DNA of 64,000 nucleotides. It comes from a virus. Lineage: Duplodnaviria > Caudoviricetes. Of the stretch, positions 5,258 to 37,237 are shown one piece after another (position 1 is the first letter of the stretch; the number at the start of each line of letters is the position of its first letter). The DNA is taken from the IMG/VR virus record IMGVR_UViG_3300020450_000008; one strand, given 5' to 3'. The notes beneath the pieces were generated by a model. The model searched no databases. It saw only the letters and a list, made by a program, of their open reading frames with translations, and was not told the DNA's origin. Both the position numbers and the translations under genes were made by a program.

Positions 5258-5262
5258 TCTAG

Positions 5263-5292
5263 GGAGCGGGCTTCGGCCCGCTCTAAACTTTT
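5263..5292 (+). terminator. Intrinsic terminator with CUUCGG tetraloop
   Basis: GAGCGGG-C-TTCG-G-CCCGCTC followed shortly by a T run. Confidence 0.8.
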
Positions 5293-5308
5293 AAAAGAGG
5301 ATAGAACA

Positions 5309-6710: not shown

Positions 6711-6711
6711 G

Positions 6712-6740
6712 TTTACAATTCAACTAAATTATGATATAAT
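6712..6740 (+). promoter_or_regulatory. Early promoter of DNA polymerase
   Basis: TTTACA-N17-TATAAT. Confidence 0.75.
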
Positions 6741-6746
6741 TACAGT

Positions 6747-9278: not shown

Positions 9279-10006
9279 CAAATTATGTTTTCGATGTGGA
9301 TGGAACACTTACACGTAGTAGGGGAAGAATAAATGAAGGATTTAGAAGATTCTTCTTAAAATTTATTCAAGATCATAAAGTATATCTTGTTACTGGAAGT
9401 GACTACTATAAGACAGTAGAACAAGTTAGTCGTGAGGTCACTGAATCAGTTGAAAAGGTATTTAATTGTTCTGGGAATAGTGTTTGGAGAAAAGGTTTAA
9501 ATATTCAAAAAACGGATTGGAGTATTCCTATGGAAGTAAAGGACTGGCTTAAAAAGAAACTTAATGAAAGTAAGTTTGATTTAAGAACTGGAAATCATAT
9601 AGAAGAGCGACCAGGACTTGTAAACTTTAGTACCATAGGTAGAGGCTGCAACTTAGAACAAAGACAATCGTATGTAAAGTTTGATAGCATACATGAAGAA
9701 AGAGAAAAGATTACAAAAGAATTTAATGATAAATTTAAAGATATTACTGCTCAGGTTGCTGGAGAAACTGGGATAGATATTATACCAGCTGGAAAAGATA
9801 AAAGACAAGTAGCATTTATGATTGATGGACCTATAACATTTTTTGGTGATAAAATGAAATATGGAGGAAATGATTATCCATTGAAATTTGCCATAGAAGG
9901 TCGTGCTGATTCAGGTGCTATAGAAGTTAAAGATTGGGAACAAACGCATAGATACTTACAACAAATACAAATTTTCAGTTTACAAGAAGCTGTCGGTATG
10001 GTATAA
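9275..10006 (+). CDS. HAD-family phosphomannomutase-like protein (start at ATG 9275)
   Basis: FDVDGTLT, LVTGSD, HIEERPGLVNFS, FFGDKMKYGGNDYPL; ATGA overlap with gp43. Confidence 0.8.
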   Translation: MTNYVFDVDGTLTRSRGRINEGFRRFFLKFIQDHKVYLVTGSDYYKTVEQVSREVTESVEKVFNCSGNSVWRKGLNIQKTDWSIPMEVKDWLKKKLNESKFDLRTGNHIEERPGLVNFSTIGRGCNLEQRQSYVKFDSIHEEREKITKEFNDKFKDITAQVAGETGIDIIPAGKDKRQVAFMIDGPITFFGDKMKYGGNDYPLKFAIEGRADSGAIEVKDWEQTHRYLQQIQIFSLQEAVGMV

Positions 10007-10027: not shown

Positions 10028-10441
10028 ATGAGTACACATTGGTCAAAAGATATTAGTGATATGCATCAAAAGTTTGGTGTTAATAAATGGTTTACTAAAA
10101 ATAAATCAAACAAAGAGATTATGAAAAAATATCTTATGTTTCGAATGCTTATGTTAAATGAAGAACTACATGAAACGATGCAAGCTGTAAATAGTGAAAA
10201 CCCAGAAGAAATAGTAGATGGTTTGATAGACATATGTGTATTTGCAATAGGTACTCTCAATGTTTTAGAAGTTGATGCTGATAAAGCTTGGGATGCCATA
10301 CATAATGCAAACATGGCAAAAGAACCTGGCGTAAAAGCTGGTAGACCTAATCCTTTCGGTATGCCAGATCTATTAAAGCCAGAAGGTTGGAAAGGACCTG
10401 ATCATAGCGACAATCATGGAAGTATCAGCGACATTCTTTAA
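10028..10441 (+). CDS. MazG-like all-alpha NTP pyrophosphohydrolase (candidate dCTPase/dUTPase)
   Basis: EELHE...EEIVDGLID acidic helices; ANMAK, DLLKPEGWKGP. Confidence 0.75.
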   Translation: MSTHWSKDISDMHQKFGVNKWFTKNKSNKEIMKKYLMFRMLMLNEELHETMQAVNSENPEEIVDGLIDICVFAIGTLNVLEVDADKAWDAIHNANMAKEPGVKAGRPNPFGMPDLLKPEGWKGPDHSDNHGSISDIL

Positions 10442-11403: not shown

Positions 11404-11772
11404 ATGAAAGAATCAGTTAAAGTTTTACAAGAATGCGCTCAAATGCAAACTAAAAAATCAGCTGACTATCAAAGCGATGAGTCAAGTGTATTACAAGCAA
11501 TGCACTATCGTCGTGGCGTTGATACAATACACGATATTATAGTTGGCAAACTTATGCGTGCTACATCATTACTTGAATCAGGCAACTCACCAAACTTTGA
11601 ATCACTTGAAGATAGTTATAAAGATATGATTAATTATGCATCATTTGCAGTATCTTATATGCGTGGTAAGATGGAAGGCCAAAGACAAGATCGTGATATG
11701 TTTAATAAACCAATTGACCCATCAGCGACAGTTGAAATTGTTGAAGAACCAATTGAGGCGCATGACGAATAA
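11404..11772 (+). CDS. Nucleotide-modification-associated domain (Nmad1/DUF1599-like)
   Basis: KKSADY...K..R...ESLEDSYKDMINY pattern. Confidence 0.6.
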   Translation: MKESVKVLQECAQMQTKKSADYQSDESSVLQAMHYRRGVDTIHDIIVGKLMRATSLLESGNSPNFESLEDSYKDMINYASFAVSYMRGKMEGQRQDRDMFNKPIDPSATVEIVEEPIEAHDE

Positions 11773-12005
11773 TGGCCGGAGCAATCAATACACCTTTAAG
11801 ACAACTTATTATGGATTGGAGTGCATGCCAATTGTTAGAGAAAGATCCTGATAATATTGTTCTTAAAAAACTTAGATCTTGGGAGCATCCTGAAACAATA
11901 GAACTAAATAAACTATTAACACAATTTGAAAAAGATGGAAAATATCCAGAACACTATAATTTAGACTGGGGTTCAATTAATTATGAAGAGTTTATAAAAG
12001 AATGA
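11772..12005 (+). CDS. Hypothetical protein
   Basis: Coupled ORF in operon. Confidence 0.5.
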   Translation: MAGAINTPLRQLIMDWSACQLLEKDPDNIVLKKLRSWEHPETIELNKLLTQFEKDGKYPEHYNLDWGSINYEEFIKE

Positions 12006-12349
12006 AAGCTGGAAAGATATGGGGTCAAACAGAACTAATCCATGCAAATGGTGTTCTAGAGTTTCATCGCATTGAATATAAAAAAGGCTTTAAATGTTCA
12101 GAGCATGAACATCAATTTAAATGGAATGGATTCTATGTTGAGTCCGGACAAATGCTTGTAAGAGTCTGGCAAGACGATCAAGAAGGATTAGTTGATGAAA
12201 CTATATTAAATCCTGGAGACTTTACGCAAGTGAAACCTGGCAAGATTCATCAGTTCGAAGGACTTGAAGATGGAATTGCATTTGAACTTTATTGGGCTGA
12301 ATTCAATCACAACGATATAGTTCGAAGAACTGTAGGAACAAAAGTATGA
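12002..12349 (+). CDS. Cupin (sugar isomerase-like)
   Basis: KIWG, CSEHEHQFKWNGFYVESG, PGKIHQF. Confidence 0.8.
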   Translation: MKAGKIWGQTELIHANGVLEFHRIEYKKGFKCSEHEHQFKWNGFYVESGQMLVRVWQDDQEGLVDETILNPGDFTQVKPGKIHQFEGLEDGIAFELYWAEFNHNDIVRRTVGTKV

Positions 12350-12537
12350 TATATGGTTGGATATTGATAATGATAACTCTACATCCTGATGGATCATTAG
12401 ACGGTGGAGCAATAGATTATTTTAACACTTACCCAGAGTGTTTTGAAGTAATGAAAGAAATGTCGGTTACAGGTCAAGGAACAGGTTATACCTGTGTAGA
12501 TGACTATGTAGATATGAGTGGAGATATAGAACAGTGA
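12346..12537 (+). CDS. Small hypothetical protein
   Basis: Coupled ORF with two Cys. Confidence 0.45.
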   Translation: MIYGWILIMITLHPDGSLDGGAIDYFNTYPECFEVMKEMSVTGQGTGYTCVDDYVDMSGDIEQ

Positions 12538-12950
12538 GAATTGGATTTACCTGCAGTACCTTTGATTTACTTCATGCAGGCCATGTCATGATGTTAAGAG
12601 AAGCGAAAGCCCAATGTGATTATTTAATATGCGGACTGCAGGTAGATCCAAGTATAGACAGGCCAGAAAAGAATTCTCCTATACAATCTATTGTAGAAAG
12701 AGAAGCTCAATTATCAGCAATAAAATATGTTGATGAGGTGATTATTTATTGTACAGAAGATGATTTATGTGATATAATTAATATGTACCCAATTGATATT
12801 AGAATATTAGGCGAAGAGTATAGAGATAGAGACTTTACTGGTAAAGATGAATGTAAGAAAAGAGGTATTCAACTTTATTTCAATAAAAGAGAACATAGGT
12901 TTAGTACTTCAGATTTAAGGAAAAGAGTGTGCGAAAAGACGACATTATAG
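12534..12950 (+). CDS. Glycerol-3-phosphate cytidylyltransferase (TagD)-like nucleotidyltransferase
   Basis: GFTCSTFDLLHAGH (HxGH), YLICGL, LGEEY, STS motif. Confidence 0.88.
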   Translation: MRIGFTCSTFDLLHAGHVMMLREAKAQCDYLICGLQVDPSIDRPEKNSPIQSIVEREAQLSAIKYVDEVIIYCTEDDLCDIINMYPIDIRILGEEYRDRDFTGKDECKKRGIQLYFNKREHRFSTSDLRKRVCEKTTL

Positions 12951-13138
12951 ATCTAGGCATAGACTTAGGCGAACCAGACTTTACAACTAAAAATGATAGG
13001 CCAGGATTTATTAGTAGCAGTGGTTGGCCAGTTCGTAGAGAAATAACAAAGTTAAATGACAATATGAAAATTATGGTCAAGCAAATGAGTAAATTAAAAA
13101 AACAAATAAGTAAACTAGAGAAGAAACTAAATGGATAA
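12929..13138 (+). CDS. Hypothetical protein
   Basis: Coupled ORF with coiled-coil C-terminus. Confidence 0.45.
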   Translation: MRKDDIIDLGIDLGEPDFTTKNDRPGFISSSGWPVRREITKLNDNMKIMVKQMSKLKKQISKLEKKLNG

Positions 13139-13838
13139 TATTGTGGAAAATTTAACATGGGCAAAAGTAAAACATATTCGTCAGCATTTTAGAGATGAAT
13201 TAAACAAAGAAGTATTTACTATTGATAAAACTGGTCAAAAGACTATTGAAATGATTGGTGCATCTTTTGTTGCTGATGAATCAGCAATATTTGGTACTCC
13301 TAATCGAGAATATATTGATGCAGAAATAGATTGGTACAATAGTAGATCTACAAATATAAATGAAATATTTGGAATCACAAAAGCACCACCACAAGCTTGG
13401 CAATATTCAGCTAATAAGTTTGGTGAGATCAACTCTAATTATGGCCACTTAATCTTTAGTGAAAAATTTTATAATCAATATTTACATGTTGTAGAAGAAT
13501 TAATAAATAATCCTGATAGTCGTAGAGCCGCAATGATTTACAATCGTCCTTCAATATGGCTTGAATATAATGAAGACGGTAAGAATGATTTTATCTGTAC
13601 TAATGCTGTTACATACTATATACGTAATAGAAGATTAGATGCTGTAGTTCAAATGAGATCTAACGATGTGGTATATGGCTATAAAAATGATTATGCCTGG
13701 CAACAATACGTTATGAAACAACTTATTGAAGATATAAATGTTCAAAGACCCGATGATGATCAAGTCTTTAAAGGTTTTATGCATTGGCAGGTTCAAAACT
13801 TACATGTGTATGAAAGGCACTTTGATTTAGTACAATGA
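13131..13838 (+). CDS. gp42: dCMP hydroxymethylase (thymidylate synthase fold)
   Basis: Collinear with T4 gp42: DKTG.KTIE.IGASFVADE, GEINSNYG, NPDSRR, DF.CTN, MRSNDVV.G.KNDYAWQ, LHVYERHF. Confidence 0.9.
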   Translation: MDNIVENLTWAKVKHIRQHFRDELNKEVFTIDKTGQKTIEMIGASFVADESAIFGTPNREYIDAEIDWYNSRSTNINEIFGITKAPPQAWQYSANKFGEINSNYGHLIFSEKFYNQYLHVVEELINNPDSRRAAMIYNRPSIWLEYNEDGKNDFICTNAVTYYIRNRRLDAVVQMRSNDVVYGYKNDYAWQQYVMKQLIEDINVQRPDDDQVFKGFMHWQVQNLHVYERHFDLVQ

Positions 13839-14383
13839 GTCAATTATTTAAAGATCCAAAAAAACCAGCATTATTTGCAGATATGAATGATCCTGTTCTT
13901 AACGCGACATATAAAACAATGAATATTATTGGAGTCGATCCTGAAAAGAAATGGGATGTAAGATATATTGAACTAGCCTACAAAGTAAGTGAATGGTCAA
14001 AAGATCCATCAACAAAGATAGGATGTGTGGTTGTAGGAAATAAGGGACAGGTATTGACTCAAGGATACAACGGTTTTCCTCGTGGTATTGATGACTCAAA
14101 TGAAAGACTTACAGATAGAGAAACTAAATTGAAATACGTTGTTCATGGAGAAATGAACGCGATATATAATGCTTGTTATAATGGAATATCTCTTGAAGGA
14201 AGTACCATGTATGTTACTGGTCTTCCAACATGCTCTGATTGCGCCAAGGGTGTAATACAAGTAGGTGTTAAAAGAGTTGTCTGGCCTAAAGAACTTGAAA
14301 ATGTTGAAGACAGATGGAAAGAATCTGTTAAATTAACTATGTCTATGTTCGATGAAGCTGGAGTAGAGTATGAGTTCATCTAA
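13835..14383 (+). CDS. cd: dCMP deaminase
   Basis: SKDPSTKIG, GYNGFPRG, HGEMNAI, PTCSDC zinc ligands. Confidence 0.9.
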   Translation: MSQLFKDPKKPALFADMNDPVLNATYKTMNIIGVDPEKKWDVRYIELAYKVSEWSKDPSTKIGCVVVGNKGQVLTQGYNGFPRGIDDSNERLTDRETKLKYVVHGEMNAIYNACYNGISLEGSTMYVTGLPTCSDCAKGVIQVGVKRVVWPKELENVEDRWKESVKLTMSMFDEAGVEYEFI

Positions 14384-15287
14384 TGCTCAAACAAATTTAA
14401 GTCGACTTAAATTAGCAGCAGATAAACCTAAAACTGTTGTAGCTTCTGATTGGAAAAGGTATTATAGTCGGTATGTTGACAGGGCTTTCGCAAGAACAAT
14501 CAATATTGATACATCTACACGTTGCTTGATGCAATGTCCTTTTTGCTCTCGCCAAAATTTTGCAACTGGTAAACTGCACATCAAAACAAATAGAACGTTT
14601 TATGGAGATTTAACTCCAGAAAATGCTTTACAAATGGCTGATGCATTTGATCGTATAAGTTTTTGTGGTCAAATATCAGATCCAATATTTCATAAAAATT
14701 TATTCTCTATATTTGAAGCCTTAGATCAAGGTGCTGCTATTAGAACACTTGAGTTTCATACAGTTGCCTCTGGAAAAAAAATGGCTTGGTGGGAAAGAGT
14801 TTTCTCATATATGGAGAATGCAAAATATAAAACTGATTTTATCATAGGTATTGATGGAATTGATCAGAAAACAGCTTCTCATAGAATAGGACAAAACTTT
14901 GAAGAAGCATGGGAAGTCTTACGATATTTTGCTGATAATAAAAGAGATAATATAGATATCACCTGGCAGTTCATACCCTTTTTATATAATGAAGATGAAG
15001 TGTTAACTGCGGCAGAAACTGCTGTTTCATTAGGGATAAATTTATTACTTCTCAAATCATCTCGTCACGTTGGAGAGTATAAGACAAATACTGGAGATAA
15101 AAAATATGCTATAGGAGCTGATTTATACACTCAAGAAGAATTTGAAAAAAAATTTCAAGGTCATTTACCATTAGCTCCAACGAAATCATTTTTAAAATCA
15201 AATAATGGTATAACAAGTTTTAATGATGGATATATAAAAACAAAGGAAGATATAAAAGAATTAGAAAGAGTTTTAAATGAATCCTAA
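14370..15287 (+). CDS. Radical SAM protein
   Basis: CLMQCPFC (CxxxCxxC), FCGQISDP, IGIDG. Confidence 0.8.
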   Translation: MSSSNAQTNLSRLKLAADKPKTVVASDWKRYYSRYVDRAFARTINIDTSTRCLMQCPFCSRQNFATGKLHIKTNRTFYGDLTPENALQMADAFDRISFCGQISDPIFHKNLFSIFEALDQGAAIRTLEFHTVASGKKMAWWERVFSYMENAKYKTDFIIGIDGIDQKTASHRIGQNFEEAWEVLRYFADNKRDNIDITWQFIPFLYNEDEVLTAAETAVSLGINLLLLKSSRHVGEYKTNTGDKKYAIGADLYTQEEFEKKFQGHLPLAPTKSFLKSNNGITSFNDGYIKTKEDIKELERVLNES

Positions 15288-15858
15288 ACCTATTAGTTTT
15301 GAAATTGATCCAGTGTGTGTACCATTTGATAAAAATGGAGAAGAAAGAGAACAACAAAATTGCGTAGCCTTCGGTTCTCATGGTTGGTACATGCCATGCT
15401 GTTGGTGTGATCAGTTTCAAGATACTCGAAATAATTATATGGATATGTATTCTAAACATTTACATGCTTCAACTGGAATTACACCAAGAGAAGTCCTTGA
15501 ATCTCCAGAATGGCAAAATTTCTTTAAAGTTATTTTTGAAGACCCACAAAACTCTTCTCATGTTTGTCAAAAATATTGTGGTGTCATAAATTATGATGAT
15601 GGTACAAAAAGAAATGTCGTAGGATTTACTGATCAAGAAAGAAGAGATATGGGAAAAGATCTTGAATTTATCAAATTTTTTGAAGAAAATATGGAGAGCA
15701 ATAATAGTTACCAGTACTGGTGGGATTTTGTTCAAGATTATAGTGGTTGGTCAGCAAGAATGAAATCAAAAGCGTGGTTTAGATTTGGATATACAGGGAT
15801 AGGTAGGCTCGCAAAAATTAAAAGACTAGAGGATAATTTAAATGCAGCCAATGTCTGA
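15277..15858 (+). CDS. Stand-alone SPASM/Twitch-like Fe-S domain protein
   Basis: C...G..MPCCWCD...CQKYCG pattern, immediately after the radical SAM gene. Confidence 0.55.
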   Translation: MNPKPISFEIDPVCVPFDKNGEEREQQNCVAFGSHGWYMPCCWCDQFQDTRNNYMDMYSKHLHASTGITPREVLESPEWQNFFKVIFEDPQNSSHVCQKYCGVINYDDGTKRNVVGFTDQERRDMGKDLEFIKFFEENMESNNSYQYWWDFVQDYSGWSARMKSKAWFRFGYTGIGRLAKIKRLEDNLNAANV

Positions 15859-16180
15859 TAGTGCAGAACTCTTGATGCTCTCAAGTATATTTGCTGATCT
15901 TGAAGATGGAGAAACAAGAACAGAAAACATCAAAAGAAGAATAGATCTAATGCAAAAATTTGTTAGACCAACACCTACTCCAGCTAAAGTTGTGTCAACT
16001 CCATCTGAAAAGATGCAAGAAGAACTTGAACCTATTGCAGAACCAGAAGAAGAACAACAATTTAGTTTTTATAAAAAGGCAGATGCTGGTTCTGATTTAG
16101 TAGAACAACTCAGACAGAAAGAAATCATGAGAGCTGAACTTGCAGCTACTGTATCAAAAACCATGAAAAAATACAAATAA
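15842..16180 (+). CDS. Hypothetical protein
   Basis: ORF in operon. Confidence 0.5.
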   Translation: MQPMSDSAELLMLSSIFADLEDGETRTENIKRRIDLMQKFVRPTPTPAKVVSTPSEKMQEELEPIAEPEEEQQFSFYKKADAGSDLVEQLRQKEIMRAELAATVSKTMKKYK

Positions 16181-16184
16181 ACTG

Positions 16185-16213
16185 TTTACAAACTCTAAAA
16201 AATTTGTTATAAT
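16185..16213 (+). promoter_or_regulatory. Early promoter heading the UDG-like to epimerase unit
   Basis: TTTACA-N17-TATAAT. Confidence 0.75.
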
Positions 16214-16219
16214 ATTATT

Positions 16220-16594
16220 ATGAAAAAAATATTGATAGTTGGTCAAAATCCATCAGCTCAAAAGCCTAGAAAAAATTCTACATTTGATAGGTTAGATCAA
16301 TGGTGTAAAGAAATGAAAGTTGATGATTTTGATTTTATTAACTGTATTGATTCAGTTGGTGATTATAAAAAGCTAAATATCAATAAGACTAATATAGTAA
16401 ACTCAACTCAGAATCGTAAAAAGATTATAGCTCTTGGAAACTTTTCTTCAGAAACTCTGACTAAACTTGGGATAGATCATTTTAAGATGCCACATCCCTC
16501 TCCAAGAAATAGAAAACTTAATGATAAAGAGTTTGAGAAAAAAATGATTAATGAGTGTAAAAGTTATTTGAACGAAACCTGTGAGCTACTCTGA
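16220..16594 (+). CDS. Minimal uracil-DNA glycosylase superfamily protein
   Basis: ILIVGQNPS motif A, IIALG, MPHPSPRN motif B. Confidence 0.7.
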   Translation: MKKILIVGQNPSAQKPRKNSTFDRLDQWCKEMKVDDFDFINCIDSVGDYKKLNINKTNIVNSTQNRKKIIALGNFSSETLTKLGIDHFKMPHPSPRNRKLNDKEFEKKMINECKSYLNETCELL

Positions 16595-16640
16595 TCCAGT
16601 CAAATATCTCACGTTAATAAACTGATATAAAGGAGAAAAT

Positions 16641-17936
16641 ATGTCAAAAATTAAAGTCGGCATTGTCGGTGTCGGAAACTGTGCTAAGTCTCTCGTCGAG
16701 GGAATTCAATACTACAACTCAAATCCAGAAGATAAAGTAGGACTTATGTATGATGATATTGGTGGTTATACAACTACTGATATAGAATTCGTAGTCGGTT
16801 TTGATGTAGATCGTCGTAAAGTAAATCGTCCATTAACAGAAGCTTTAAGAGCCGCTCCAAACTGCGCTATGGATCATGTTGGAGAAATATTAGAAGTCGG
16901 TGCAAACACTCCAGGCTGTGTAGCTTCAGGAGCTATGGTATATTCTGGACCAGAACTAGATGGTATCGCACCATGGATGCTTGAATATCCTAAAGAAGTT
17001 TCATTTAGAACTGGAGCTGAAGCGGCAAAATCTTATGATGATATTGTAGACATAATTAAAAAGACTAAAGTTGATGTTCTGATTAATTATTTACCAGTTG
17101 GTACAGAAAAAGGGTCTAGATTTTATATGGATGCTGCATTAGACGCTGGTGTTCATTTTGTTAATTGTATTCCAACTCTTATATCAACTAAAGAAACTAT
17201 GGAGATAGAACAAAAGTTTATCAACAAAGGATTGACTATTGTTGGATCTGATATGAGATCCGCTTGGGGAGCTTCAAGAATGTCAGAAGTACTTCAAGGT
17301 GCTATGATAGATTCAGGACTAATGGTTACACAACATATACAGATGAATATGGCCGCTGGTTCTACTCAAGGTCAAGAAAATATACGAACAGGTAGAACAG
17401 CTAATACTGATTTTCTTAACATGGCAGAAAAATCTCGATTGCATAATAAACATGTATCAAAAGAAAATGTTTTGAAAGGTCAAAATATAGTACGTAATGA
17501 ACCTACAGCAGGTGCAACACTTTATGCTGGTCCATCTCTTACAGTATTTCAAAAGCCAGGTGGACAATATGTAGGTAGTGATAATAAAATAGCTAACTTC
17601 GATATTGTTGCTTATGGTTTTGGTGGGGCTAGATATGAAATGTCAGCTAGATTATCAGTACAAGACTCTCCAAACTCTGGTGGTGTTGTAGTATCTGCAA
17701 TCAGGTTCTGCAAAGTTGCATCTGAAATGAGCATTGTTGGTTATCTTAGAGGTCCATCAGCATGGACTCAAAAAACTCCTCCACTTCAGTTATCTACATC
17801 TGATTCAAAATTTGAATGTGATGCTTTGGCAAGACGTACTCTTACAAAATTAACTGAAGCTCAATTAAAAGTAAATAAACCAAAAGCAAAAAGTCTACCA
17901 TATACATTCCAAGCTGGAGAAACAGATTATGAGTAG
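16641..17936 (+). CDS. ino1: Myo-inositol-1-phosphate synthase
   Basis: VGIVGVGNCAKSLVEG, VLINYLPVG, FVNCIP, TANTDFLNM, DSPNSGGVV. Confidence 0.9.
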   Translation: MSKIKVGIVGVGNCAKSLVEGIQYYNSNPEDKVGLMYDDIGGYTTTDIEFVVGFDVDRRKVNRPLTEALRAAPNCAMDHVGEILEVGANTPGCVASGAMVYSGPELDGIAPWMLEYPKEVSFRTGAEAAKSYDDIVDIIKKTKVDVLINYLPVGTEKGSRFYMDAALDAGVHFVNCIPTLISTKETMEIEQKFINKGLTIVGSDMRSAWGASRMSEVLQGAMIDSGLMVTQHIQMNMAAGSTQGQENIRTGRTANTDFLNMAEKSRLHNKHVSKENVLKGQNIVRNEPTAGATLYAGPSLTVFQKPGGQYVGSDNKIANFDIVAYGFGGARYEMSARLSVQDSPNSGGVVVSAIRFCKVASEMSIVGYLRGPSAWTQKTPPLQLSTSDSKFECDALARRTLTKLTEAQLKVNKPKAKSLPYTFQAGETDYE

Positions 17937-18333
17937 AGAACCTTTTGAGCCTTGGAAAAACATTCCTCAAAAGACTATAAATTCATATGATATCGATGGC
18001 GTTATATACATGGGTGACTATGATGGATTAAGGCCAGGACCTGATGATATCGTAATTACTGGTAGATCTATTTGTACCGAAGAAGAAACTAAAAAAATGC
18101 TTCTTAAAAAAGGTATAACTAATCCTTTATACATGAATTTTAAAGACAAAGACTATAATAATAGAGAACAATCTGGATTTCATAAAGGTTGGACTTTATT
18201 TCATCTTGAGCAGCTGGGGTATCATATTGGAATCCATTATGATGATGATATGATTCAAATCGAAAAGATAAATGAAATGATGCCGCATATTCATTGCGTT
18301 CATGTAAAACACGAACTTGTACCAAAGGAGTAA
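17929..18333 (+). CDS. Small HAD-family phosphatase
   Basis: YDIDGVI motif I, ITGRS motif II, K, YDDD motif IV. Confidence 0.75.
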   Translation: MSREPFEPWKNIPQKTINSYDIDGVIYMGDYDGLRPGPDDIVITGRSICTEEETKKMLLKKGITNPLYMNFKDKDYNNREQSGFHKGWTLFHLEQLGYHIGIHYDDDMIQIEKINEMMPHIHCVHVKHELVPKE

Positions 18334-18335
18334 AC

Positions 18336-19406
18336 ATGTACAACTATGATTGGTGGTCTTACGATAAAGACATAATGAAAGATTTTAATCATTTCTTAAA
18401 AAAGATTAATACTCGAGCATGTATCAATTATGGTTTTATTGATGAGGAATATGAAAACTTAAATAGGCATGGAGACTTAGATCATGGTCTTGGTCGTAAT
18501 GTAGAATATTTCCACCCTACAATTACTTTAGATGATAGAATGAGATATATTGGTACAGTCATTGCGCAGCATGATATGTCTGATTTTAGTATTTTAGGCA
18601 ATGGTATAATATCTCACTTTTATGGAGCACGTGGCGTTCATATGGCAGTTACAGGATCTAACGATCCTAATGACTGTTTTGTTGATTTTGACAAATTAGC
18701 TGATAATGATAAAGATTACCTACAGCATCTTAGAAATAATATAGATAATTCTAGAAAGTTAAAAAAACCAATATGGGGTACAACAGAACTTCATACATCA
18801 ATACAAGCAGCTTCTAGAAATTATTGTAGACAAAAATATGATGACGCTGAAAGAGCATTCCATCCTGTTGACGTAGTTGATTGGGTTGCATCATTTAGAA
18901 ATAATGGAACATATGAAGAACTCTTTGCCGCAGATCATATTGGAGAAGCTTATAAAATATTAAGAAAGTTACCAGGTATTGGAGAATATTACGGATTTCA
19001 TGGTGCTGCATCAACTAGTGTTTTACCTCAAATGAAATATTATCATGATGATAAATTTGTAGCTCCAGGACCTGGTGCAGTATATACAATAGGACTTATG
19101 TGGCCAAAGGCTCCAAAAAAATATTATGCAGAAGCAATTTACTTCTTAAGAGAAAACAGCGATGAGATTGGTCTTACAGAAGATGTTAGTTTTCATCCAG
19201 GCGCTTATAACATCGATATGCCAGGTGGAAAAAAGCTTTTTAGAGAAGATCAAAAAACTCTTAAATATTATGGTACTGAAGTTTTATCTTGTCAGTTTGG
19301 TATATACTTACAGATTAGAGAAGATGCTAAGCTATGTGCAAAACGTCAGGTATCAAGAGCTACAGTACTTGAAGATCAAAATACGTTAGAAAGTTTTATG
19401 CAATGA
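18336..19406 (+). CDS. aGPT-Pplase / amino acid:DNA transferase-like (HhH-fold) DNA hypermodification protein
   Basis: LRKLPGIG HhH-like motif followed by YYGFH...DDKFVAPGPGA; AAGGAG SD before ATG 18336. Confidence 0.55.
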   Translation: MYNYDWWSYDKDIMKDFNHFLKKINTRACINYGFIDEEYENLNRHGDLDHGLGRNVEYFHPTITLDDRMRYIGTVIAQHDMSDFSILGNGIISHFYGARGVHMAVTGSNDPNDCFVDFDKLADNDKDYLQHLRNNIDNSRKLKKPIWGTTELHTSIQAASRNYCRQKYDDAERAFHPVDVVDWVASFRNNGTYEELFAADHIGEAYKILRKLPGIGEYYGFHGAASTSVLPQMKYYHDDKFVAPGPGAVYTIGLMWPKAPKKYYAEAIYFLRENSDEIGLTEDVSFHPGAYNIDMPGGKKLFREDQKTLKYYGTEVLSCQFGIYLQIREDAKLCAKRQVSRATVLEDQNTLESFMQ

Positions 19407-20389
19407 AAGCAATATTAAACTGTCCATTTATTCCAGTAGCAAAAAGAATAGCTTCTCACAGAGGAGCTCAAGGCGTTATGTATGGCGATATGATAAAACA
19501 AAAGTATGGTCATTGTGATGTCAACTTTGGTGGCGAGATTATAGATCATAATCAGTATGATACGATGTGGGTATATCATGGAAATGATTTTAGTGGTGGA
19601 TTAAATATGTTTGGTGGCGTTTATGGTTTTCCTTATGTAGAAAATACAGTAAACTTTTCTAAGTTTAAAGGTAAAATAAAATCAATAGCCATTGACTTTC
19701 CGCCATATCATGAATGGATAAAAGATAAATTAGATAAAGCTAAGAAAGACGTACAGCCTGAATGGGCCAGTGTAGATTTAAATAATCTTGAAAGAATGTA
19801 TAATGAAGCTGAAACGGTTGATTATCCAAATATGACCGACAAATTAGTCATAGGTGATTCACATTCGATATGCATGTATAGACCGGGTTGGACCGTCAAT
19901 AGCATACCATTTAAAACTTTAAATGGAGCTTTAAAAGAAGGTATTAAAACATTCATACCAAAAGGAAGTTTCAATCAAATAGAATTGTACTTTGGCAATA
20001 TTGATATAAGACATCATGTGTGTAGGCTAAATGCTGATATAGAAGAATTGGCTGATAGATATATTGAACAAGCAAAAGAATTGAATGCTAAAATATATGA
20101 ACTATTGCCAATAGAAAATGAATCACGCAAGTTACCACAATCTGGATATTATAAAGGCGAACCTTTCTGGGGTACATGGCAAGAAAGAACAGATGCAAGA
20201 AATAAATTTAATGATTACATTGAAAGCAAATATGGAATCATACGTTGGACGGATAAATTACTAAATAAAACTGGTGAACTTGATTTTGCATGTATGGAAA
20301 AACCAAAGTCAATACATTTAAGTAGAGAGTTCTATCCTCACTGGAACGGAGAGGAAGAGGTAAATACATTAGAGGAGTTTTTCGGATGA
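19403..20389 (+). CDS. Hypothetical protein with SGNH-like GDSH motif
   Basis: VIGDSHS, YFGNIDIRHH, SIHL; ends TLEEFFG. Confidence 0.5.
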   Translation: MKAILNCPFIPVAKRIASHRGAQGVMYGDMIKQKYGHCDVNFGGEIIDHNQYDTMWVYHGNDFSGGLNMFGGVYGFPYVENTVNFSKFKGKIKSIAIDFPPYHEWIKDKLDKAKKDVQPEWASVDLNNLERMYNEAETVDYPNMTDKLVIGDSHSICMYRPGWTVNSIPFKTLNGALKEGIKTFIPKGSFNQIELYFGNIDIRHHVCRLNADIEELADRYIEQAKELNAKIYELLPIENESRKLPQSGYYKGEPFWGTWQERTDARNKFNDYIESKYGIIRWTDKLLNKTGELDFACMEKPKSIHLSREFYPHWNGEEEVNTLEEFFG

Positions 20390-21582
20390 GCTTTGCAAGT
20401 ATAGTGCCACTCATAGGTGGTGAAACAATAGCAATGCAAAATGTATCAGGTAAAAAACCAGAATACATATTAAGCTATTCAGCGTTTGAAGCAAATGATA
20501 ACCAATTAGTTGAATACTATGATAACAAAGTACCATACTATCATTTAGATGGTAATATGCCAAAAAGTTTACCAACTGTAGAGTCTGTCAATACTGTTTG
20601 TCCTTGTGCTGGATTAAGCAGTCTTTCTCCAGTTGCTGGTACAAATAATAGTAATAATGATTGGATGAGTAAAACAGCTAAACATGTTTTAGAACATATC
20701 AATCCTAAAGTGTTTTGGGGAGAAAACGCTCCAAGACTTGCAAGTAAAATGGGTGAGCCTATAGTTAAAAATCTTAGAAAAATTGGAAGTGACAATGGAT
20801 ACACATTTTCAATATATAAAACAAAATCAATATTACATGGATTAAGTCAGGTAAGAGATAGAACCTTCTATTTCTTTTGGAAAGGAGATAAGATTCCACG
20901 CTTACCTTATATTCACAGAAATTACGAGCGTATTGAAGATACCATTAGAAATACAAAGCTTAAAAAAGATGATCCAATGAATATTCCAGTAAATAGTAAG
21001 GCTCCTACAGATAATCCTTTTTATAAGTATGTACTAGAGGAGATAGAAGGTGGTATAACACATTCAGAATTTCAAGAAAAAATAGAGCGTAGTACCAATC
21101 CTTTAGAAGAAATAGAGAGAGCCGGTATAAAATATCGTACTGTAGGCGAGTGGATGACTAAAAAAGGCTATGATAGAGAAGCAGAAAAGTGTAAAAGAAT
21201 GCATGATAAATTAGCATCAGGTGGTAACATAATGCGTAAAACTACTGAAATACCAAAAGATTATATTGGAGCTTTTGTTGGTCATATGCCAACATCACTA
21301 ACACATCCTGATGAAGATAGGTATCTTACAGTAAGAGAATGTTTATCAATCATGAAATTACCTGATGATTTTATGTTACAAGGTGGTCTTAAAAATCTTA
21401 ATCATATTTGCCAAAACGTTCCTGTGACTACGGCAGAAGATATGGCCACTAGTGTTCATGCTTTTGTAGAGGGAAGGCTTGATAACCAGATGATTGATAC
21501 AAAATTTTTAGTACAAGATAACAAAAATAAGTCATTGGATTATCAAAGAGAAAGCATGCAACTAGATGAGTTTATGGTATAG
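20386..21582 (+). CDS. Atypical C5-cytosine DNA methyltransferase-fold protein
   Basis: Motif IV CPCAGLS, VI ENAP, VIII QVRDRTF, IX RYLTVRECLSIM; motif I degenerate (VPLIGG) and motif X degenerate (CQNVP). Confidence 0.7.
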   Translation: MSFASIVPLIGGETIAMQNVSGKKPEYILSYSAFEANDNQLVEYYDNKVPYYHLDGNMPKSLPTVESVNTVCPCAGLSSLSPVAGTNNSNNDWMSKTAKHVLEHINPKVFWGENAPRLASKMGEPIVKNLRKIGSDNGYTFSIYKTKSILHGLSQVRDRTFYFFWKGDKIPRLPYIHRNYERIEDTIRNTKLKKDDPMNIPVNSKAPTDNPFYKYVLEEIEGGITHSEFQEKIERSTNPLEEIERAGIKYRTVGEWMTKKGYDREAEKCKRMHDKLASGGNIMRKTTEIPKDYIGAFVGHMPTSLTHPDEDRYLTVRECLSIMKLPDDFMLQGGLKNLNHICQNVPVTTAEDMATSVHAFVEGRLDNQMIDTKFLVQDNKNKSLDYQRESMQLDEFMV

Positions 21583-21590
21583 GAGATAAA

Positions 21591-22529
21591 ATGAAAATAT
21601 TAATAACAGGACAAGCTGGATTTATAGGTTTCCATGCCGCTATTGGATTTAAAAATGATGGTTGGGAAGTACATGGTATTGATAACTTCAATGATTATTA
21701 TGATGTAAAACTGAAAAGAGATAGAGCTACTATTCTTCAAGATTTAGGAATTTCTACTATTGATGATACCATTGAAAATTTTAATAAAATAGATTTTCCA
21801 GAATATGATTTAATACTACATTTAGCCGCTTATACAAATCCCAGACACGCTTTAAAAACTCAACAACCTTATATTGATACTAATATTACAGCAACTCAAA
21901 GAATAATTGATGTAGCACAAGATAAAGGAACACCAGTTGTATACGCTTCAAGCAGTTGCGTCATGCTAGGACAACCACTTCCTTGGAATGAAACCGATAG
22001 ACCACAACATCAAAACAATCCTTATGGTTGGTCAAAGCATGTCAATGAATGCCAATTTAAACACTCAACTGTTGTAAGATCTGCTGGATTGAGATTCTTT
22101 ACGGTTTATGGTCCTTATGGAAGACCTGATATGGCACTGTTTTCTTTTACAAGATCGATAGTAAAAGATGAAGGAATAGTTTTATATAACTACGGCGATA
22201 TGAAAAGAGACTTTACTTACGTAGATGATATTATCCAAGGTATAAAAATAGTTGCAAACAAACTTATGAAAGATGAAGAAAACTATCATGAGATATATAA
22301 TATTGGGTATGGTGATCAAGTAGAGTTAATTGACTTCGTTGATCATATTGAAAAGAATCTTGGTAGAAAGACCGAAAGAAAATTAGAACCAATGCATCCT
22401 GCAGATGCAAAAGAAACTTGGTCAGATACTACAAAGCTTCAAGCACTTGGATATAAACCAACAACTCCTGTACAAATAGGAGTTGCTAAATTCGTTGAAT
22501 GGTATAAACAATATTATAATGTAAATTAA
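21591..22529 (+). CDS. NAD-dependent sugar epimerase (UDP-glucuronate 4-epimerase/WcaG-like)
   Basis: ITGQAGFIG, ASSS, YGWSK (YxxxK), RFFTVYGPYGRPDMA, RDFTYVDD. Confidence 0.9.
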   Translation: MKILITGQAGFIGFHAAIGFKNDGWEVHGIDNFNDYYDVKLKRDRATILQDLGISTIDDTIENFNKIDFPEYDLILHLAAYTNPRHALKTQQPYIDTNITATQRIIDVAQDKGTPVVYASSSCVMLGQPLPWNETDRPQHQNNPYGWSKHVNECQFKHSTVVRSAGLRFFTVYGPYGRPDMALFSFTRSIVKDEGIVLYNYGDMKRDFTYVDDIIQGIKIVANKLMKDEENYHEIYNIGYGDQVELIDFVDHIEKNLGRKTERKLEPMHPADAKETWSDTTKLQALGYKPTTPVQIGVAKFVEWYKQYYNVN

Positions 22530-24092: not shown

Positions 24093-25474
24093 ATACAAAT
24101 ATAGAACAAGTAGTTCTAAAGAACATTCTCACTAATGAGAAATATATGCGAAAGGTTCTACCTTTTGTAAAACCAGATTACTTTGAAGGAACATATAAGA
24201 TTCTCTTCAAAGAAGCAGGTAAGTTTGTTGGAAAGTATAATAAACTTCCGACAGCTGAAGCCTTCAAGATTGAGATTGATAATGCTGATTCTTTTAACGA
24301 AGAGCAATATAGACATGCAGTCGAGATTATTCCTAACCTTTTCGAAGAAGAAAAAGCCGATGAACAATGGCTCTATGAAAGTACTGAAAAGTGGTGCCAA
24401 GATAGAGCGCTATATAATGCAGTCATGGAATCAATCTCAATCATTGATGGTAAACATACTAAATTAACAAAGAACGCTCTGCCAGAAATATTAACAAAAG
24501 CTTTAGGAGTTTCTTTTGATACTAATGTAGGTCATGATTATATTGAAAATGCAGATTCACGATATGATTTTTATCATAGAGATGAAGAACGTATTCCTTT
24601 TGATTTAGAATATTTTAATCTTATAACAAAAGGTGGTCTTCCTAATAAAACACTTAATATATGTCTTGCAGGTACTGGTGTTGGTAAATCTTTATTCATG
24701 TGTCATTGCGCCGCATCTGCAATGAGTCAAGGACGTAACGTTCTTTATATCACGATGGAAATGGCTGAAGAACGCATTGCTGAAAGAATTGATGCTAATT
24801 TGCTTGATTGTCCTATTGATCAATTACCAAACCTATCAAAAGAAATGTTTGCAGATAGAGTCTATAAATTATCTACAAGAACAAATGGTAAATTAATTAT
24901 TAAAGAATATCCTACTGGCCAAGCAAGTACTTCACATTTTAGAGCATTACTAAATGAATTAAAACTTAAGAAGTCTTTTGAACCAGAAATGATCTTTATA
25001 GATTATCTAAATATATGTGCTTCATCTAGAATGAAAGGAATGGGCGGTGCAATCAATTCATACAACTACATTAAAGCAATTGCTGAAGAGATACGTGGCC
25101 TTGCGGTCGAATTTGACGTACCGATCGTCTCTGCAACGCAAACGACTCGTTCGGGTTATAGTAACTCGGATATTGGGTTGGAAGATACGTCCGAATCTTT
25201 TGGATTACCCGCAACTGCTGATCTAATGTTTGCTATTATATCTACTGAAGAATTAGAAAGCATGGGACAACTTGCAGTAAAACAATTAAAGAATAGATAT
25301 AATGACCCCACTTATAAGAAAAGGTTTGTTATAGGTGTGGATAGATCAAAGATGAGATTATTTGATGTAAATGATTCTGAACAAACTCTAATCGATGACA
25401 CTCCTGTATTTGATAAGACCCCAACTGGAAAAGCAATAATGGACGAAAAGGCATTCGAAGGATTTAAACTTTGA
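24089..25474 (+). CDS. gp41: Replicative DnaB-like helicase
   Basis: LAGTGVGKSLFMC Walker A, ITMEMAEE, IDYLNIC, SATQTTR, SESFGLPATAD, QLKNRY. Confidence 0.96.
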   Translation: MNTNIEQVVLKNILTNEKYMRKVLPFVKPDYFEGTYKILFKEAGKFVGKYNKLPTAEAFKIEIDNADSFNEEQYRHAVEIIPNLFEEEKADEQWLYESTEKWCQDRALYNAVMESISIIDGKHTKLTKNALPEILTKALGVSFDTNVGHDYIENADSRYDFYHRDEERIPFDLEYFNLITKGGLPNKTLNICLAGTGVGKSLFMCHCAASAMSQGRNVLYITMEMAEERIAERIDANLLDCPIDQLPNLSKEMFADRVYKLSTRTNGKLIIKEYPTGQASTSHFRALLNELKLKKSFEPEMIFIDYLNICASSRMKGMGGAINSYNYIKAIAEEIRGLAVEFDVPIVSATQTTRSGYSNSDIGLEDTSESFGLPATADLMFAIISTEELESMGQLAVKQLKNRYNDPTYKKRFVIGVDRSKMRLFDVNDSEQTLIDDTPVFDKTPTGKAIMDEKAFEGFKL

Positions 25475-26538
25475 GAGATTTGATTGTAGCTAGCGGCTGT
25501 TCTTTTACTGATGAAAAATTCAGGGCAGCTTCTGTTCCGAAAGATTTTCCTGAGCATCTTAGAGGTGGATGGAAAATGTGGCCAGAAGTATTTAAAGATA
25601 GCCTATCAAAAGCTGATAATTACAAATATGAGCTCATAAACACTGCAGTCTCCGGAGTGGGTTTAGAATACGCCTTTGATAGTCTTATAGAATTATTTCA
25701 TACAAATAAAGATAGATTAAAAGTTATGTTATGGGGTGGAACGGATTGGCTTAGAGTTCCTCACTTTACTCGCCATAAACATGGTTGGGGAAACATCAGA
25801 TATTTTCAAGATGATGCAAACGTGCATATTCCAAAAGAATGGGAAGAAAAAGATAACGTACAAAAAGGAGCACAGCTTACAATTCACGTTAATAATACTT
25901 CGCCATGGCAAAAGTTGGCTGATGGAAAAGTCAAAGTAAAGCTTGCTAAAGAATTAAAAAAATATAGTGATGATTTTGTAGAGAAAATAAAGAGTCAAGA
26001 AAACTTTGGTCCATACTTATTGGAAGTGGCCAGAGATCTTAAAGATATTAACAAATTTCATCATATAGTAAAAAGATGTATGAATCGAATATTGACTCTA
26101 AAAGAATTATGCGAAAAGGAAGGAATCACTTTCATATATATGACTTTATTACCTCCTTTATACACTGGAGCTCCTATGACAACTGTTGGCGGACTTGAAT
26201 ATGCAATAAACCAAGAAAAAGAAATTAAAATAATTTCTGATGCATCTATTGAATCTTTTAAAAAAATGTGTGACTCAAAAAATATTTGGGGATTTGATAA
26301 TAAAAGTTTAAGAGTGGCAATAAGAACGTGGAGTCAGTTTAATATGCATGATTTAATTTCTTCCAATACAGAACATTTTAATTGGGACGGGCATCCAAAC
26401 GAACAAGGACAAAGGAAATTAGGAAATCAAGTTTTTGATCTTTATAATGAAATAGTAAAAGGTGACGAAAGTTATTCTATTAATCATGCAAGTTTAAAAA
26501 GAAGATGGAAAATGAGTAAGGGGTTTGGTAAAAAATGA
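25471..26538 (+). CDS. SGNH-like hypothetical protein
   Basis: ASGCSFTD near N-terminus, DGHPN near C-terminus. Confidence 0.5.
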   Translation: MRDLIVASGCSFTDEKFRAASVPKDFPEHLRGGWKMWPEVFKDSLSKADNYKYELINTAVSGVGLEYAFDSLIELFHTNKDRLKVMLWGGTDWLRVPHFTRHKHGWGNIRYFQDDANVHIPKEWEEKDNVQKGAQLTIHVNNTSPWQKLADGKVKVKLAKELKKYSDDFVEKIKSQENFGPYLLEVARDLKDINKFHHIVKRCMNRILTLKELCEKEGITFIYMTLLPPLYTGAPMTTVGGLEYAINQEKEIKIISDASIESFKKMCDSKNIWGFDNKSLRVAIRTWSQFNMHDLISSNTEHFNWDGHPNEQGQRKLGNQVFDLYNEIVKGDESYSINHASLKRRWKMSKGFGKK

Positions 26539-27237: not shown

Positions 27238-27504
27238 ATGTTAAGTGACGATAAATTTAAAGATGTTTATAACAGATTAATGACTACTGCAAATTCATTA
27301 ATAGAAGAATATGAAGATGAAGACGAAAACATGCATCTTGTTGTGGCTGGTGTCTTAACAACTATGGGATTAAGTATGTACAAATCAATTATGTCAGAAA
27401 GAGACTTTGAGAAAATGATGACTCTTATGGTCAGCATGAAAGAAGAAATAAAAACTTACCAAGAAATGGAAGAAGAACAAGCCGATTCGGAGACATATCA
27501 TTGA
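27238..27504 (+). CDS. Acidic hypothetical protein
   Basis: ORF with GAGGG SD. Confidence 0.5.
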   Translation: MLSDDKFKDVYNRLMTTANSLIEEYEDEDENMHLVVAGVLTTMGLSMYKSIMSERDFEKMMTLMVSMKEEIKTYQEMEEEQADSETYH

Positions 27505-37233: not shown

Positions 37234-37237
37234 GTAA

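Follow-up and report, generated by a model that had tools for sequence, protein, structure and literature searches.

A probable 5-hydroxymethylcytosine hypermodification module with an INO1-like cyclitol-phosphate synthase in the replication region of a T4-like phage

We analyzed a window of 64,000 nucleotides (the whole stretch of DNA under study) from a virus of the Caudoviricetes (Duplodnaviria; IMG/VR record IMGVR_UViG_3300020450_000008), in which a preliminary description, made from the sequence alone, had proposed that the genes between positions 12002 and 22529 form a single system that places an inositol-derived substituent on hydroxymethylcytosine. A smaller set of genes within this stretch very probably constitutes a hypermodification module for 5-hydroxymethylcytosine (5hmC), and from the predicted proteins we lean, cautiously, toward the view that a cyclitol, or its phosphate, would be attached to 5hmC in the DNA of the phage. 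The module combines a T4-type dCMP hydroxymethylase (gp42) with an INO1-like synthase of the MIPS (myo-inositol-1-phosphate synthase) family, a small HAD-type phosphatase, a helix-hairpin-helix (HhH) protein resembling the AADT enzymes, an SGNH-fold protein and a C5-cytosine-methyltransferase-like (C5MT-like) protein. It is set in the replication module of an uncultured, T4-like marine phage, where the genes for the clamp loader gp62, RegA and the family-B polymerase gp43 lie upstream of it, and those for UvsX and the gp41 helicase downstream. The large open reading frames (ORFs) of the region, whose G+C content is about 33%, are all on the + strand and tightly packed, and those from INO1 through the C5MT-like gene overlap or abut. 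For comparison, 80 IMG/VR loci whose INO1 is 75-100% identical to that of the window were assembled together with three cultured phages into a first set of 83 loci, and scans seeded with proteins of phages Cr30 and Moby added 42 further loci with more divergent INO1, for a total of 125.

The ORF at 13131-13838 (+) encodes an ortholog of T4 gp42 (phmmer E 1e-70 to the T4 gp42 structures 1b49 and 1b5e, residues 13-234), with about 53% identity to the gp42 of Tequatrovirus and only about 25% to the Mosigvirus-type 5-hydroxycytosine (5hoC) synthases. Many gp42-like enzymes of T4 relatives make 5-hydroxy-dCMP, the hallmark of which is an Asn at the position of E. coli D169, and an Asp at the position of E. 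coli N177 (D179 in T4) leads to cytosine specificity (Lee et al. 2026, PMC13326640). The window protein has an Asp at the D169 position ('MRSNDVVYG' aligned to T4 'MRSNDVVFG'), the catalytic Cys ('DFICTN' aligned to T4 'DFMCTN') and the cytosine-specificity Asp ('KNDYAW' aligned to T4 'RNDYAW'). Because this thymidylate synthase (TS) homolog keeps all three residues, the phage most likely makes 5-hydroxymethyl-dCMP, and the enzyme that had been named a gp42-type dCMP hydroxymethylase can be described from its diagnostic residues as cytosine-specific and of the hydroxymethyl type. Two other identities of the TS homolog were considered and rejected: that of a 5-hydroxy-dCMP synthase, by Asp169 and the 25% identity to the Mosigvirus-type enzymes, and that of an enzyme of a dUMP (thymine) pathway, by the Asp at the N177 position.

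Around gp42 the window holds a T4-style nucleotide set. A dCMP deaminase with the role of T4 cd (13835-14383, +; Pfam E 4e-21) adjoins gp42 always in the relatives, and a protein with DUF1599, the 'nucleotide modification associated domain 1' (11404-11772, +; Pfam E 1.6e-6), is syntenic in 38 loci and usually lies directly 5' of gp42 in relatives. A MazG/PRA-PH-type NTP pyrophosphohydrolase (10028-10441, +; Pfam PRA-PH E 1e-9; DR2231 MazG-like E 2e-4), kept alongside the module in 31 of the first 83 loci, is a candidate for the dCTPase role of gp56, and ThyX is encoded farther on. No gp1-like kinase was seen within the window.

The INO1-like protein (16641-17936, +) is a putative NAD-dependent cyclitol-phosphate synthase that aligns over residues 3-387 to M. 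tuberculosis Ino1 (1gr0, E 3e-51), bears the NAD-binding motif 'GVGNCAKS', and scores 34.6 bits with Pfam Inos-1-P_synth, for which the cut-off is 27. Its family is very abundant, with over 5,000 clusters in metagenomes when grouped at 90% identity, and a search of a large protein collection returned only close marine relatives and no cellular names. The gene that follows (17929-18333, +) encodes a small HAD-type phosphatase, recognized by its motifs only: D21 and D23 (DxDGV), T44-G45-R46 (TGR), K86 and D106-D107 (DD), which correspond to HAD motifs I-IV, are invariant in 24 homologs. This protein gave no Pfam match, and searches of PDB sequences with the protein and with an HAD profile returned nothing useful; its neighbors in a language-model comparison were small viral phosphatases with Acid_phosphat_B or HAD_PNKP domains (score 0.91). 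The HAD gene adjoins INO1 in nearly all phage loci.

Downstream of this pair lies the gene for the AADT-like HhH protein (18336-19406, +), the longest ORF of which begins at a TTG at 18294, the probable start being the ATG at 18336. The protein matches Pfam HMUDK_hel (PF18723, E 4e-9), contains the HhH motif 'LPGIGEYYGFH', and carries E316 and C320 within a Glu-x3-Cys-Gln motif, both residues being invariant in 13 homologs; the same E-x3-C-Q spacing is common to the Pfam-ADDT proteins that adjoin INO1 in other phages. The AlphaFold2 (AF2) model (pLDDT 83) had as its top VIA-align match the 5-PmdU glycinyltransferase gp46 of PaMx11 (8z2m; Z 8.8, rmsd 4.1, 219 residues), followed by HhH DNA glycosylases at Z 5-7. 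In AADTs, the amino-acid:DNA transferases of clade 2 of the aGPT-Pplases, an essential Cys with a nearby Glu is at work, and attack on C6 yields an exocyclic 5-methylene that is captured by a nucleophile, which in phage ViI is the hydroxyl of serine (PMC8989533). The aGPT-Pplase/ADDT-like call of the preliminary description is thus borne out at the level of the AADT/aGPT-Pplase structural class, by HMUDK_hel, the E-x3-C motif and the fold. Identity of the same protein as a 5-hmdU DNA kinase was rejected, as it has no P-loop and the match is confined to the helical domain.

The next gene (19403-20389, +) encodes a two-domain GDSH/SGNH protein in which an N-terminal alpha/beta domain precedes an SGNH-hydrolase fold (AF2 pLDDT 82). 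The SGNH domain aligned with 4rsh over 146 residues (Z 12.7, rmsd 3.0), residues 145-320 matched dozens of SGNH esterases and acyltransferases at Z 9-12, and Foldseek recovered the fold at E 5e-6. The blocks GDSH (151-154) and GNID (198-201) do not vary, S303-x-H305 stands at block V in place of DxxH, and no Pfam GDSL match was obtained. In T4-like phages of Aeromonas that carry gp42, an SGNH protein is fused to an AADT-like protein, as in ORF233c of Aeromonas phage 31. Beside this fusion (locus L084, 4256-5779) lies a gene of the sodium:solute symporter family (Pfam SSF E 7e-53), and because of this adjacency there are hints that the Aeromonas hmC phages may import a donor rather than make it. 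The window itself possibly holds a second SGNH-type protein, a 355-aa ORF 3' of the helicase (25471-26538) in which SGNH-like motifs were seen by eye ('SGCSFTD', 'WDGHPN') and for which no Pfam match was found.

The C5MT-like protein (20386-21582, +; Pfam DNA_methylase E 9e-18, 65 bits) keeps motifs I, IV, VI, VIII and X, with PLIGGE, CPCAG, ENA, QxRxR and QNV invariant in 12 homologs. The acidic AdoMet-binding positions of motifs II and III vary (E/K/Q and D/R/S), the motifs having been assigned by eye, without a structure. The gene is frequent and not universal, being missing from several lineages with long flanks.

A feature of the C-terminal ends sets three of these proteins apart. The family-B DNA polymerase gp43 (6747-9278, +; Pfam DNA_pol_B E 2e-31) ends in ...ATLEEFFG, the SGNH protein in ...NTLEEFFG, the AADT-like protein in ...NTLESFMQ and the C5MT-like protein in ...QLDEFMV, and of the approximately 90 ORFs on the window's + strand only gp43 and these three adjacent genes have an L-x-x-F-[FM] ending. 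The tails are kept in the homolog alignments of the SGNH, AADT-like and C5MT-like proteins. The polymerases of T4 and RB69 attach to the gp45 sliding clamp through their C-terminal peptide. Because their tails match that of the DNA polymerase, the three enzymes are probably brought to the gp45 clamp, by analogy, and would act there on newly made DNA. INO1 had no tail at any locus examined and the HAD phosphatase of the window has none either, so that both are taken as soluble, which suggests an arrangement of soluble supply enzymes beside clamp-tethered DNA enzymes. In one subclade the HAD phosphatase does carry a tail (...QLSLF), and this fits dephosphorylation on DNA. Similar pairs of endings were found in other phages, in which a TET protein (...SLEGFF) and an ADDT (...GLEVFY) stand beside a polymerase ending in ...TLEDFFG.

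Comparison of the first 83 loci separated a conserved core from genes that vary between strains. Homologs of the HAD phosphatase were found in 81 loci, of the AADT-like protein in 58, of the SGNH protein in 49, of the C5MT-like protein in 35, of gp42 in 49 and of the dCMP deaminase in 53, the missing core genes being mostly due to contig ends. A mini UDG-superfamily protein (16220-16594, +; Pfam UDG E 2e-7; motifs GQNPS and HPSPRN), for which a search against PDB sequences gave nothing useful, is optional (21 of the 83 loci). The usual order is DUF1599-gp42-cd-(UDG-like)-INO1-HAD-AADT-like-SGNH-(C5MT)-uvsX, and where gp42 is not adjacent, another part of the contig or genome encodes an ortholog that has the same diagnostic Asp residues. 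Because several lineages with long flanks have no C5MT-like gene, the minimal core consists of INO1, HAD, the AADT-like gene and the SGNH gene.

Across the 125 loci the INO1-HAD pair occurs in three genomic contexts. The gp42 type accounts for 62 loci, and in 8 more gp42 lies upstream and the downstream flank is too short. Clustering of neighbors and a Pfam scan of the INO1-HAD loci without gp42 and the AADT-like gene revealed a second architecture (43 loci), in which a Tet_JBP dioxygenase, a Pfam ADDT and sometimes a TET-associated-glycosyltransferase-like protein precede INO1-HAD and a P-loop 'nucleotide kinase 3' follows; in Cr30 the ADDT (E 1e-52) and Tet_JBP genes next to INO1 were confirmed by whole-record searches. 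The third, of 7-deazaguanine type (7 loci), reads FolE-INO1-HAD-QueC-DpdA-QueE in the Menderavirus phages of Stenotrophomonas and was also found in a marine contig (L017) that shares 80% identity with the window in INO1 and only 26% in the polymerase. Pfam TGT misses even the annotated DpdA of Moby and was left unused for scoring the loci of this type. The remaining five loci comprise three that are nearly flankless and two bacterial contigs with a lone MIPS gene beside rpoC; the latter (L121 and L122), filed as viral, look bacterial, the MIPS gene being without HAD and next to the RNA polymerase beta-prime gene. The association of INO1-HAD with base-modification genes recurs in four or more deep lineages of INO1 (mutual identity 38-59%), within which the flanking machinery switches and INO1-HAD remains, and three groups of cultured phages, represented by Caulobacter phage Cr30, Ralstonia phage RP13 and Stenotrophomonas phage Moby, have the pair. 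The preliminary description had named the company of lipid or capsid-glycan genes, in place of gp42 and ADDT, as what would speak against a role of ino1 in DNA modification; among the 125 loci INO1-HAD was never found amid such genes, its neighbors being gp42, AADT-like and SGNH genes, Tet_JBP, ADDT and kinase genes, or 7-deazaguanine genes.

Two 7-deazaguanine clusters hold a large ORF without a Pfam match just 5' of INO1 (6565-7890 in locus L115 and 8201-9820 in L017). In L115 the endings of DpdA (...SLDDLFD) and of the neighboring 442-aa ORF (...TLDSLFD) are alike, and that of the polymerase differs (...GPPQSFF); in L017 the ending of the 540-aa ORF (...HNLFDF) resembles that of its own polymerase (...NSMFSF). 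The two large ORFs are candidates for a DNA-acting partner of INO1-HAD in the 7-deazaguanine context.

These findings can be arranged into a route to the modified base. In the first step, for which the support from sequence is strong, gp42 would make 5-hydroxymethyl-dCMP, the dCMP deaminase and the presumed MazG-type dCTPase would shape the nucleotide pool, and 5hmC would be incorporated at replication. In the second, the INO1-like enzyme would cyclize a hexose phosphate to a cyclitol phosphate, by default glucose-6-phosphate to an inositol phosphate, and the HAD phosphatase would strip the phosphate before or after transfer, on DNA in the phages where it bears a tail. In the third, by analogy with the serine transfer of ViI, the Glu-x3-Cys of the clamp-tethered AADT-like protein may attack C6 of the pyrimidine to give the exocyclic 5-methylene, which a cyclitol hydroxyl would capture to form an ether. 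More speculatively, the SGNH protein would stand in place of the P-loop 5-hmdU DNA kinase of the thymidine pathways and would activate or process the hydroxymethyl group, and the C5MT-like protein might be a second C6-attacking scaffold, acting as an optional tailoring or helper enzyme. We also put forward, as a tentative extension that we find rather less probable than the attachment of a cyclitol in this phage, that INO1-HAD is a portable donor-supply cassette for three chassis, namely pre-replicative 5hmC, post-replicative 5hm-pyrimidine and 7-deazaguanine (FolE, QueC, QueE, DpdA), giving a family of cyclitol-bearing bases, abundant in ocean viromes, whose hmC version is recruited to the clamp and has an SGNH protein replacing the DNA kinase.

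Several observations weigh against the attachment of a cyclitol to 5hmC or narrow what it explains. We know of no SGNH enzyme that acts on DNA bases, and the role given here to the SGNH protein, read from the position of its gene alone, is speculative. A P-loop DNA kinase is absent from the window, the only Walker-A protein found there being the helicase, and Ploopntkinase3 was not found on larger related contigs. The Z of 8.8 of the AADT-like model is no more than moderate, the protein being helical, Pfam ADDT gave no match to the protein even at E 10, and hhalign of its family against an alignment of the ADDT neighbors of INO1 gave a probability of 0.9%, which is not significant. What connects the AADT-like protein with ADDT is the fold, the motif in common and the match to HMUDK_hel. 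That the tails bind the clamp is argued by analogy with the T4 and RB69 polymerases. Many of the loci come from related phages, so that there are fewer independent observations than the locus counts suggest. Finally, because INO1-HAD also occurs in 7-deazaguanine clusters without ADDT, a role specific to hydroxymethyl-pyrimidines is incomplete as an explanation of the pair.

This last point bears on a different explanation, in which the DNA enzymes hypermodify 5hmC with a common nucleophile of the cell, for instance an amino acid or a polyamine, and INO1-HAD is an unrelated auxiliary inositol pair in the same variable slot. Known AADTs work without donor-synthesis genes, taking glycine, serine or putrescine in free form (PMC8989533), the SGNH-AADT-like fusion of Aeromonas phages occurs without INO1, Moby-like phages have INO1-HAD without any ADDT, and the gp43-uvsX-gp41 region is an insertion hot spot. 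We nevertheless consider it unlikely that the pair is unrelated, as INO1-HAD is wedged within the modification operon, mostly overlapping or abutting its neighbors, and is flanked by ADDT and the kinase in 43 loci, and in about 62 by cd or the UDG-like gene on one side and the AADT-like gene on the other. The placement is the same among INO1 lineages with identities of 38-100% and in phages whose polymerases share only 26%; apart from the bacterial contigs, INO1-HAD was never in a non-DNA context, and some HAD orthologs bear the polymerase-type tail.

Other reservations about the attachment of inositol concern the INO1-like enzyme itself. The name myo-inositol-1-phosphate synthase, used in the preliminary description, stands as far as similarity goes (E 3e-51 to 1gr0) but not for a canonical enzyme, since the protein scores 202 bits with TIGR03450, far below the NCBIfam equivalog cut-off of 638, and has Arg for a Lys of the active site. 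This residue, the Lys of the 'DD-x-K-S' helix ('DDIKSQ'), which we take to be K369 of yeast and K274 of A. fulgidus, is replaced by Arg ('SDMRSA') in the window protein and in most phage homologs, and a 15-aa insertion lies N-terminal to the N-x-DF motif. Because the active site is non-canonical in these respects (Arg, insertion, low equivalog score), the product is perhaps not myo-inositol phosphate, and substrate and product may both differ from glucose-6-phosphate and inositol phosphate. A lysine network is treated as catalytic in MIPS (K391, K395, K432 and K508 in T. thermophila; K278 and K367 in A. fulgidus; PMC11348189). In phages the state of this position does not follow architecture: the Lys is present in Moby-type INO1 and is kept by a minority of homologs in all three contexts. 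A link between the Lys/Arg state and cluster type was accordingly ruled out, both states being found in each of them.

A variant of the cyclitol reading, and not a rival to it, in which INO1 makes a carbocycle different from myo-inositol that is then attached to DNA, be it a five-membered cyclitol phosphate as made by the aristeromycin enzyme Ari2, a keto-cyclitol or a different isomer of inositol, would agree with the Arg, the insertion and the low equivalog score, and with the second-best PDB sequence match of the protein, the five-membered cyclitol phosphate synthase 6k96 (E 5e-27), which likewise lacks that Lys. We hold this variant to be somewhat less probable again than an unrelated pair: the similarity to M. 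tuberculosis Ino1 is much higher than to 6k96, the homologs that retain the Lys occur in the same three contexts, and no additional tailoring enzyme is conserved.

Improbable, and the weakest of the explanations considered, is glycosylation of the T4 kind, in which the BGT-like N-terminal domain of the protein at 19403 would use a nucleotide sugar supplied by the PMM-like, UDP-glucose-dehydrogenase-like (UGDH-like), RfaE-II/TagD-like nucleotidyltransferase and ADP-heptose-epimerase-like genes of the window, with the MIPS homolog in sugar metabolism: an epimerase and a UGDH-like gene do lie directly 5' of INO1 in one related locus (L008) and SDR genes recur in the module, yet conservation of the core does not extend to the sugar-nucleotide genes, the UGDH-like protein has only 250 aa and no C-terminal domain, and the 19403 protein is in its C-terminal half an SGNH hydrolase, catalytic blocks included, and not a nucleotide-sugar-binding Rossmann domain. 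The signal for a beta-glucosyltransferase (BGT) in that protein is sub-threshold (residues 29-98, Pfam E 0.074; Foldseek to 1j39 E 1.4e-3, TM 0.29) and is the only such trace among the scanned ORFs, in which, as had been noted before, no alpha- or beta-glucosyltransferase was recognized. Membership of the 19403 protein in the T4 beta-glucosyltransferases is not supported, given its SGNH half and a profile search of PDB sequences, which found no BGT.

The proposed attachment of a cyclitol to 5hmC has its closest known counterpart in thymidine hypermodification (M6, ViI, PaMx11, SP10 and PhiW-14; Lee et al. 2018; 2021, PMC8989533), in which likewise a 5-hydroxymethylpyrimidine is formed to begin with and is remodeled once it is part of the DNA polymer, one of the enzymes is an HhH, glycosylase-like protein that has a conserved Cys and, close to it, a Glu (PaMx11 gp46 being our best fold match), and tailoring genes such as radical SAM and SDR vary between phages. 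Those pathways start from uracil through a dUMP hydroxymethylase and use a 5-hmdU DNA kinase, whereas the window phage would start from cytosine through gp42 and has no P-loop kinase. In addition, its operon has the SGNH-fold and C5MT-like proteins, polymerase-type tails and no Pfam ADDT match, and would supply its own donor by INO1 and HAD instead of drawing on free amino acids. Phage TET/JBP (5mYOX) clusters for post-replicative hypermodification, with ParB, kinases and AADTs, have been described (PMC13229309), and Cr30 and 42 other loci carry that T-hypermodification gene set around INO1-HAD; the window differs in having no TET enzyme and the pre-replicative gp42 instead. The word 'inositol' does not occur in the main text of that report.

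With the glucosyl-hmC system of T4 (gp42, gp56, gp1 and the alpha- and beta-glucosyltransferases) the window shares gp42 at 53% identity, the dCMP deaminase, a candidate dCTPase, T4-type replication genes and modification after replication, and it differs in the lack of a recognizable glucosyltransferase and in the predicted exocyclic-methylene chemistry, as opposed to glycosyl transfer from UDP-glucose. The arabinosyl-5-hydroxycytosine of RB69 and DLP3 (PMC13326640) is also found in T4-like phages, with a TS homolog that prepares the cytosine and a phage donor pathway that includes a small HAD-type phosphatase; those phages have D169N synthases that give 5-hydroxy-dCMP, GT-B glycosyltransferases and an NDP-arabinose pathway, whereas the window has Asp169 and neither of the latter two. 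The cellular pathway of MIPS and inositol monophosphatase (M. tuberculosis Ino1, 1gr0) resembles the pair in fold, NAD-binding motif, full-length alignment and a coupled phosphatase gene. The phage version departs from it in the Arg at the first catalytic-helix Lys, the 15-aa insertion, the sub-equivalog score, a minimal HAD/PNKP-type phosphatase in place of IMPase, and a context of DNA modification and not of lipid or mycothiol synthesis.

To our knowledge, the known hypermodifications at pyrimidine C5 in DNA carry sugars, amino acids or polyamines, and full-text searches of the literature found no paper that ties inositol or cyclitols to phage DNA modification, nor one on a carbocyclic polyol on DNA. 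Were a cyclitol indeed present, natural DNA bases would gain a new chemical class. A cyclitol joined through an ether would be isobaric with a hexose, hence easily mistaken for one in routine mass spectrometry, and as an ether and not an acetal it should withstand glycosidases and mild acid. The AADT mechanism would cover cytosine as well as thymine, and also alcohol nucleophiles of the phage's own making, enzymes of SGNH and C5-methyltransferase fold would join those that tailor DNA bases, and modification enzymes would be tethered at the replication clamp. Such a base would be relevant to phage resistance against restriction, CRISPR and type IV systems and to nanopore basecalling of marine viromes, and its enzymes could be a source for DNA labeling. 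The cultured carriers Cr30, RP13 and Moby make the idea of a cyclitol-bearing base directly testable.

The other metabolic genes of the region appear, from their distribution among the 83 loci, to be strain-specific extras: the cupin, the nucleotidyltransferase, the radical-SAM gene, the 312-aa epimerase, the PMM-like gene and the UGDH-like gene. The cupin (12002-12349, +; Cupin_2 E 8e-8) and the TagD/RfaE-II-type cytidylyl/adenylyltransferase (12534-12950, +; CTP_transf_like E 5e-13; NCBIfam RfaE domain II E 7e-22, then TagD E 5e-18), accompanied by a 63-aa ORF within 12002-12950 (+), have homologs in one locus and in five loci, respectively, or six for the latter if a 35%-identical second copy in L051 is included. 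The PMM-like gene (9233-10006, +) and the truncated UGDH-like gene (2135-2887, +; 250 aa with a partial NAD-binding domain and the central domain, the C-terminal UDP-binding domain being missing) lie upstream, as had been described, and were found in none and in one of the loci. At the other end, the SDR epimerase/dehydratase of 312 aa (21591-22529, +; Pfam Epimerase E 1e-37; best NCBIfam match ADP-heptose 6-epimerase) is replaced in relatives by a different SDR of 249 aa in or near the module. Every gene named in the preliminary description was found where it had been placed, on the + strand; its treatment of 12002-22529 as one system does not hold, the cupin, TagD-like, epimerase, PMM-like and UGDH-like genes occurring seldom or not at all in relatives with the core. 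For the same reason, neither the CDP-inositol route nor a uronic or amino-sugar donor, both of which it had raised, has comparative support, as the nucleotidyltransferase and the sugar genes are not kept with the core.

Three ORFs had been overlooked in that description: a radical-SAM gene with an intact CxxxCxxC motif (14370-15287), a Cys-rich ORF of 193 aa (15277-15858) and an ORF at 15842-16180. The first two (14370-15858, +) lie between the dCMP deaminase and UDG-like genes, were found in none of the 83 loci, even those of near-identical strains, and look like a strain-specific insertion. Their nearest cultured relatives are in the Pelagibacter phage Mosig and in Campylobacter phages.

Ahead of the block from the UDG-like gene to the epimerase, where a promoter had been proposed, a sigma-70-like match was found (16185-16213, +; TTTACA-17-TATAAT, agreeing at 11 of 12 positions and having the TG of an extended -10), which is a consensus match only. 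It is the strongest promoter-like match of the region and sits in a 40-nt gap 5' of the UDG-like gene; region-wide, the count of promoter-like matches was not above that in shuffled sequence.

A nucleotide search of the whole region against the phage collection matched no cultured phage, and the T4-like cyanophages of that collection gave no INO1 match. The gp41 helicase is closest to those of T4-like cyanophages (61-68% identity), and this affinity, together with genes for Hsp20, plastocyanin and ThyX (4675-6020 and 27501-28370), points to a phage near the cyanomyovirus group. A second metabolic island lies at 34140-41182, with a 2-oxoglutarate (2OG) oxygenase of the Asp/Asn-beta-hydroxylase type, a class IV aminotransferase, a B12-binding radical-SAM enzyme and an IMPDH/GMP-reductase-like gene, the latter being the second such gene after one at 466-1521.

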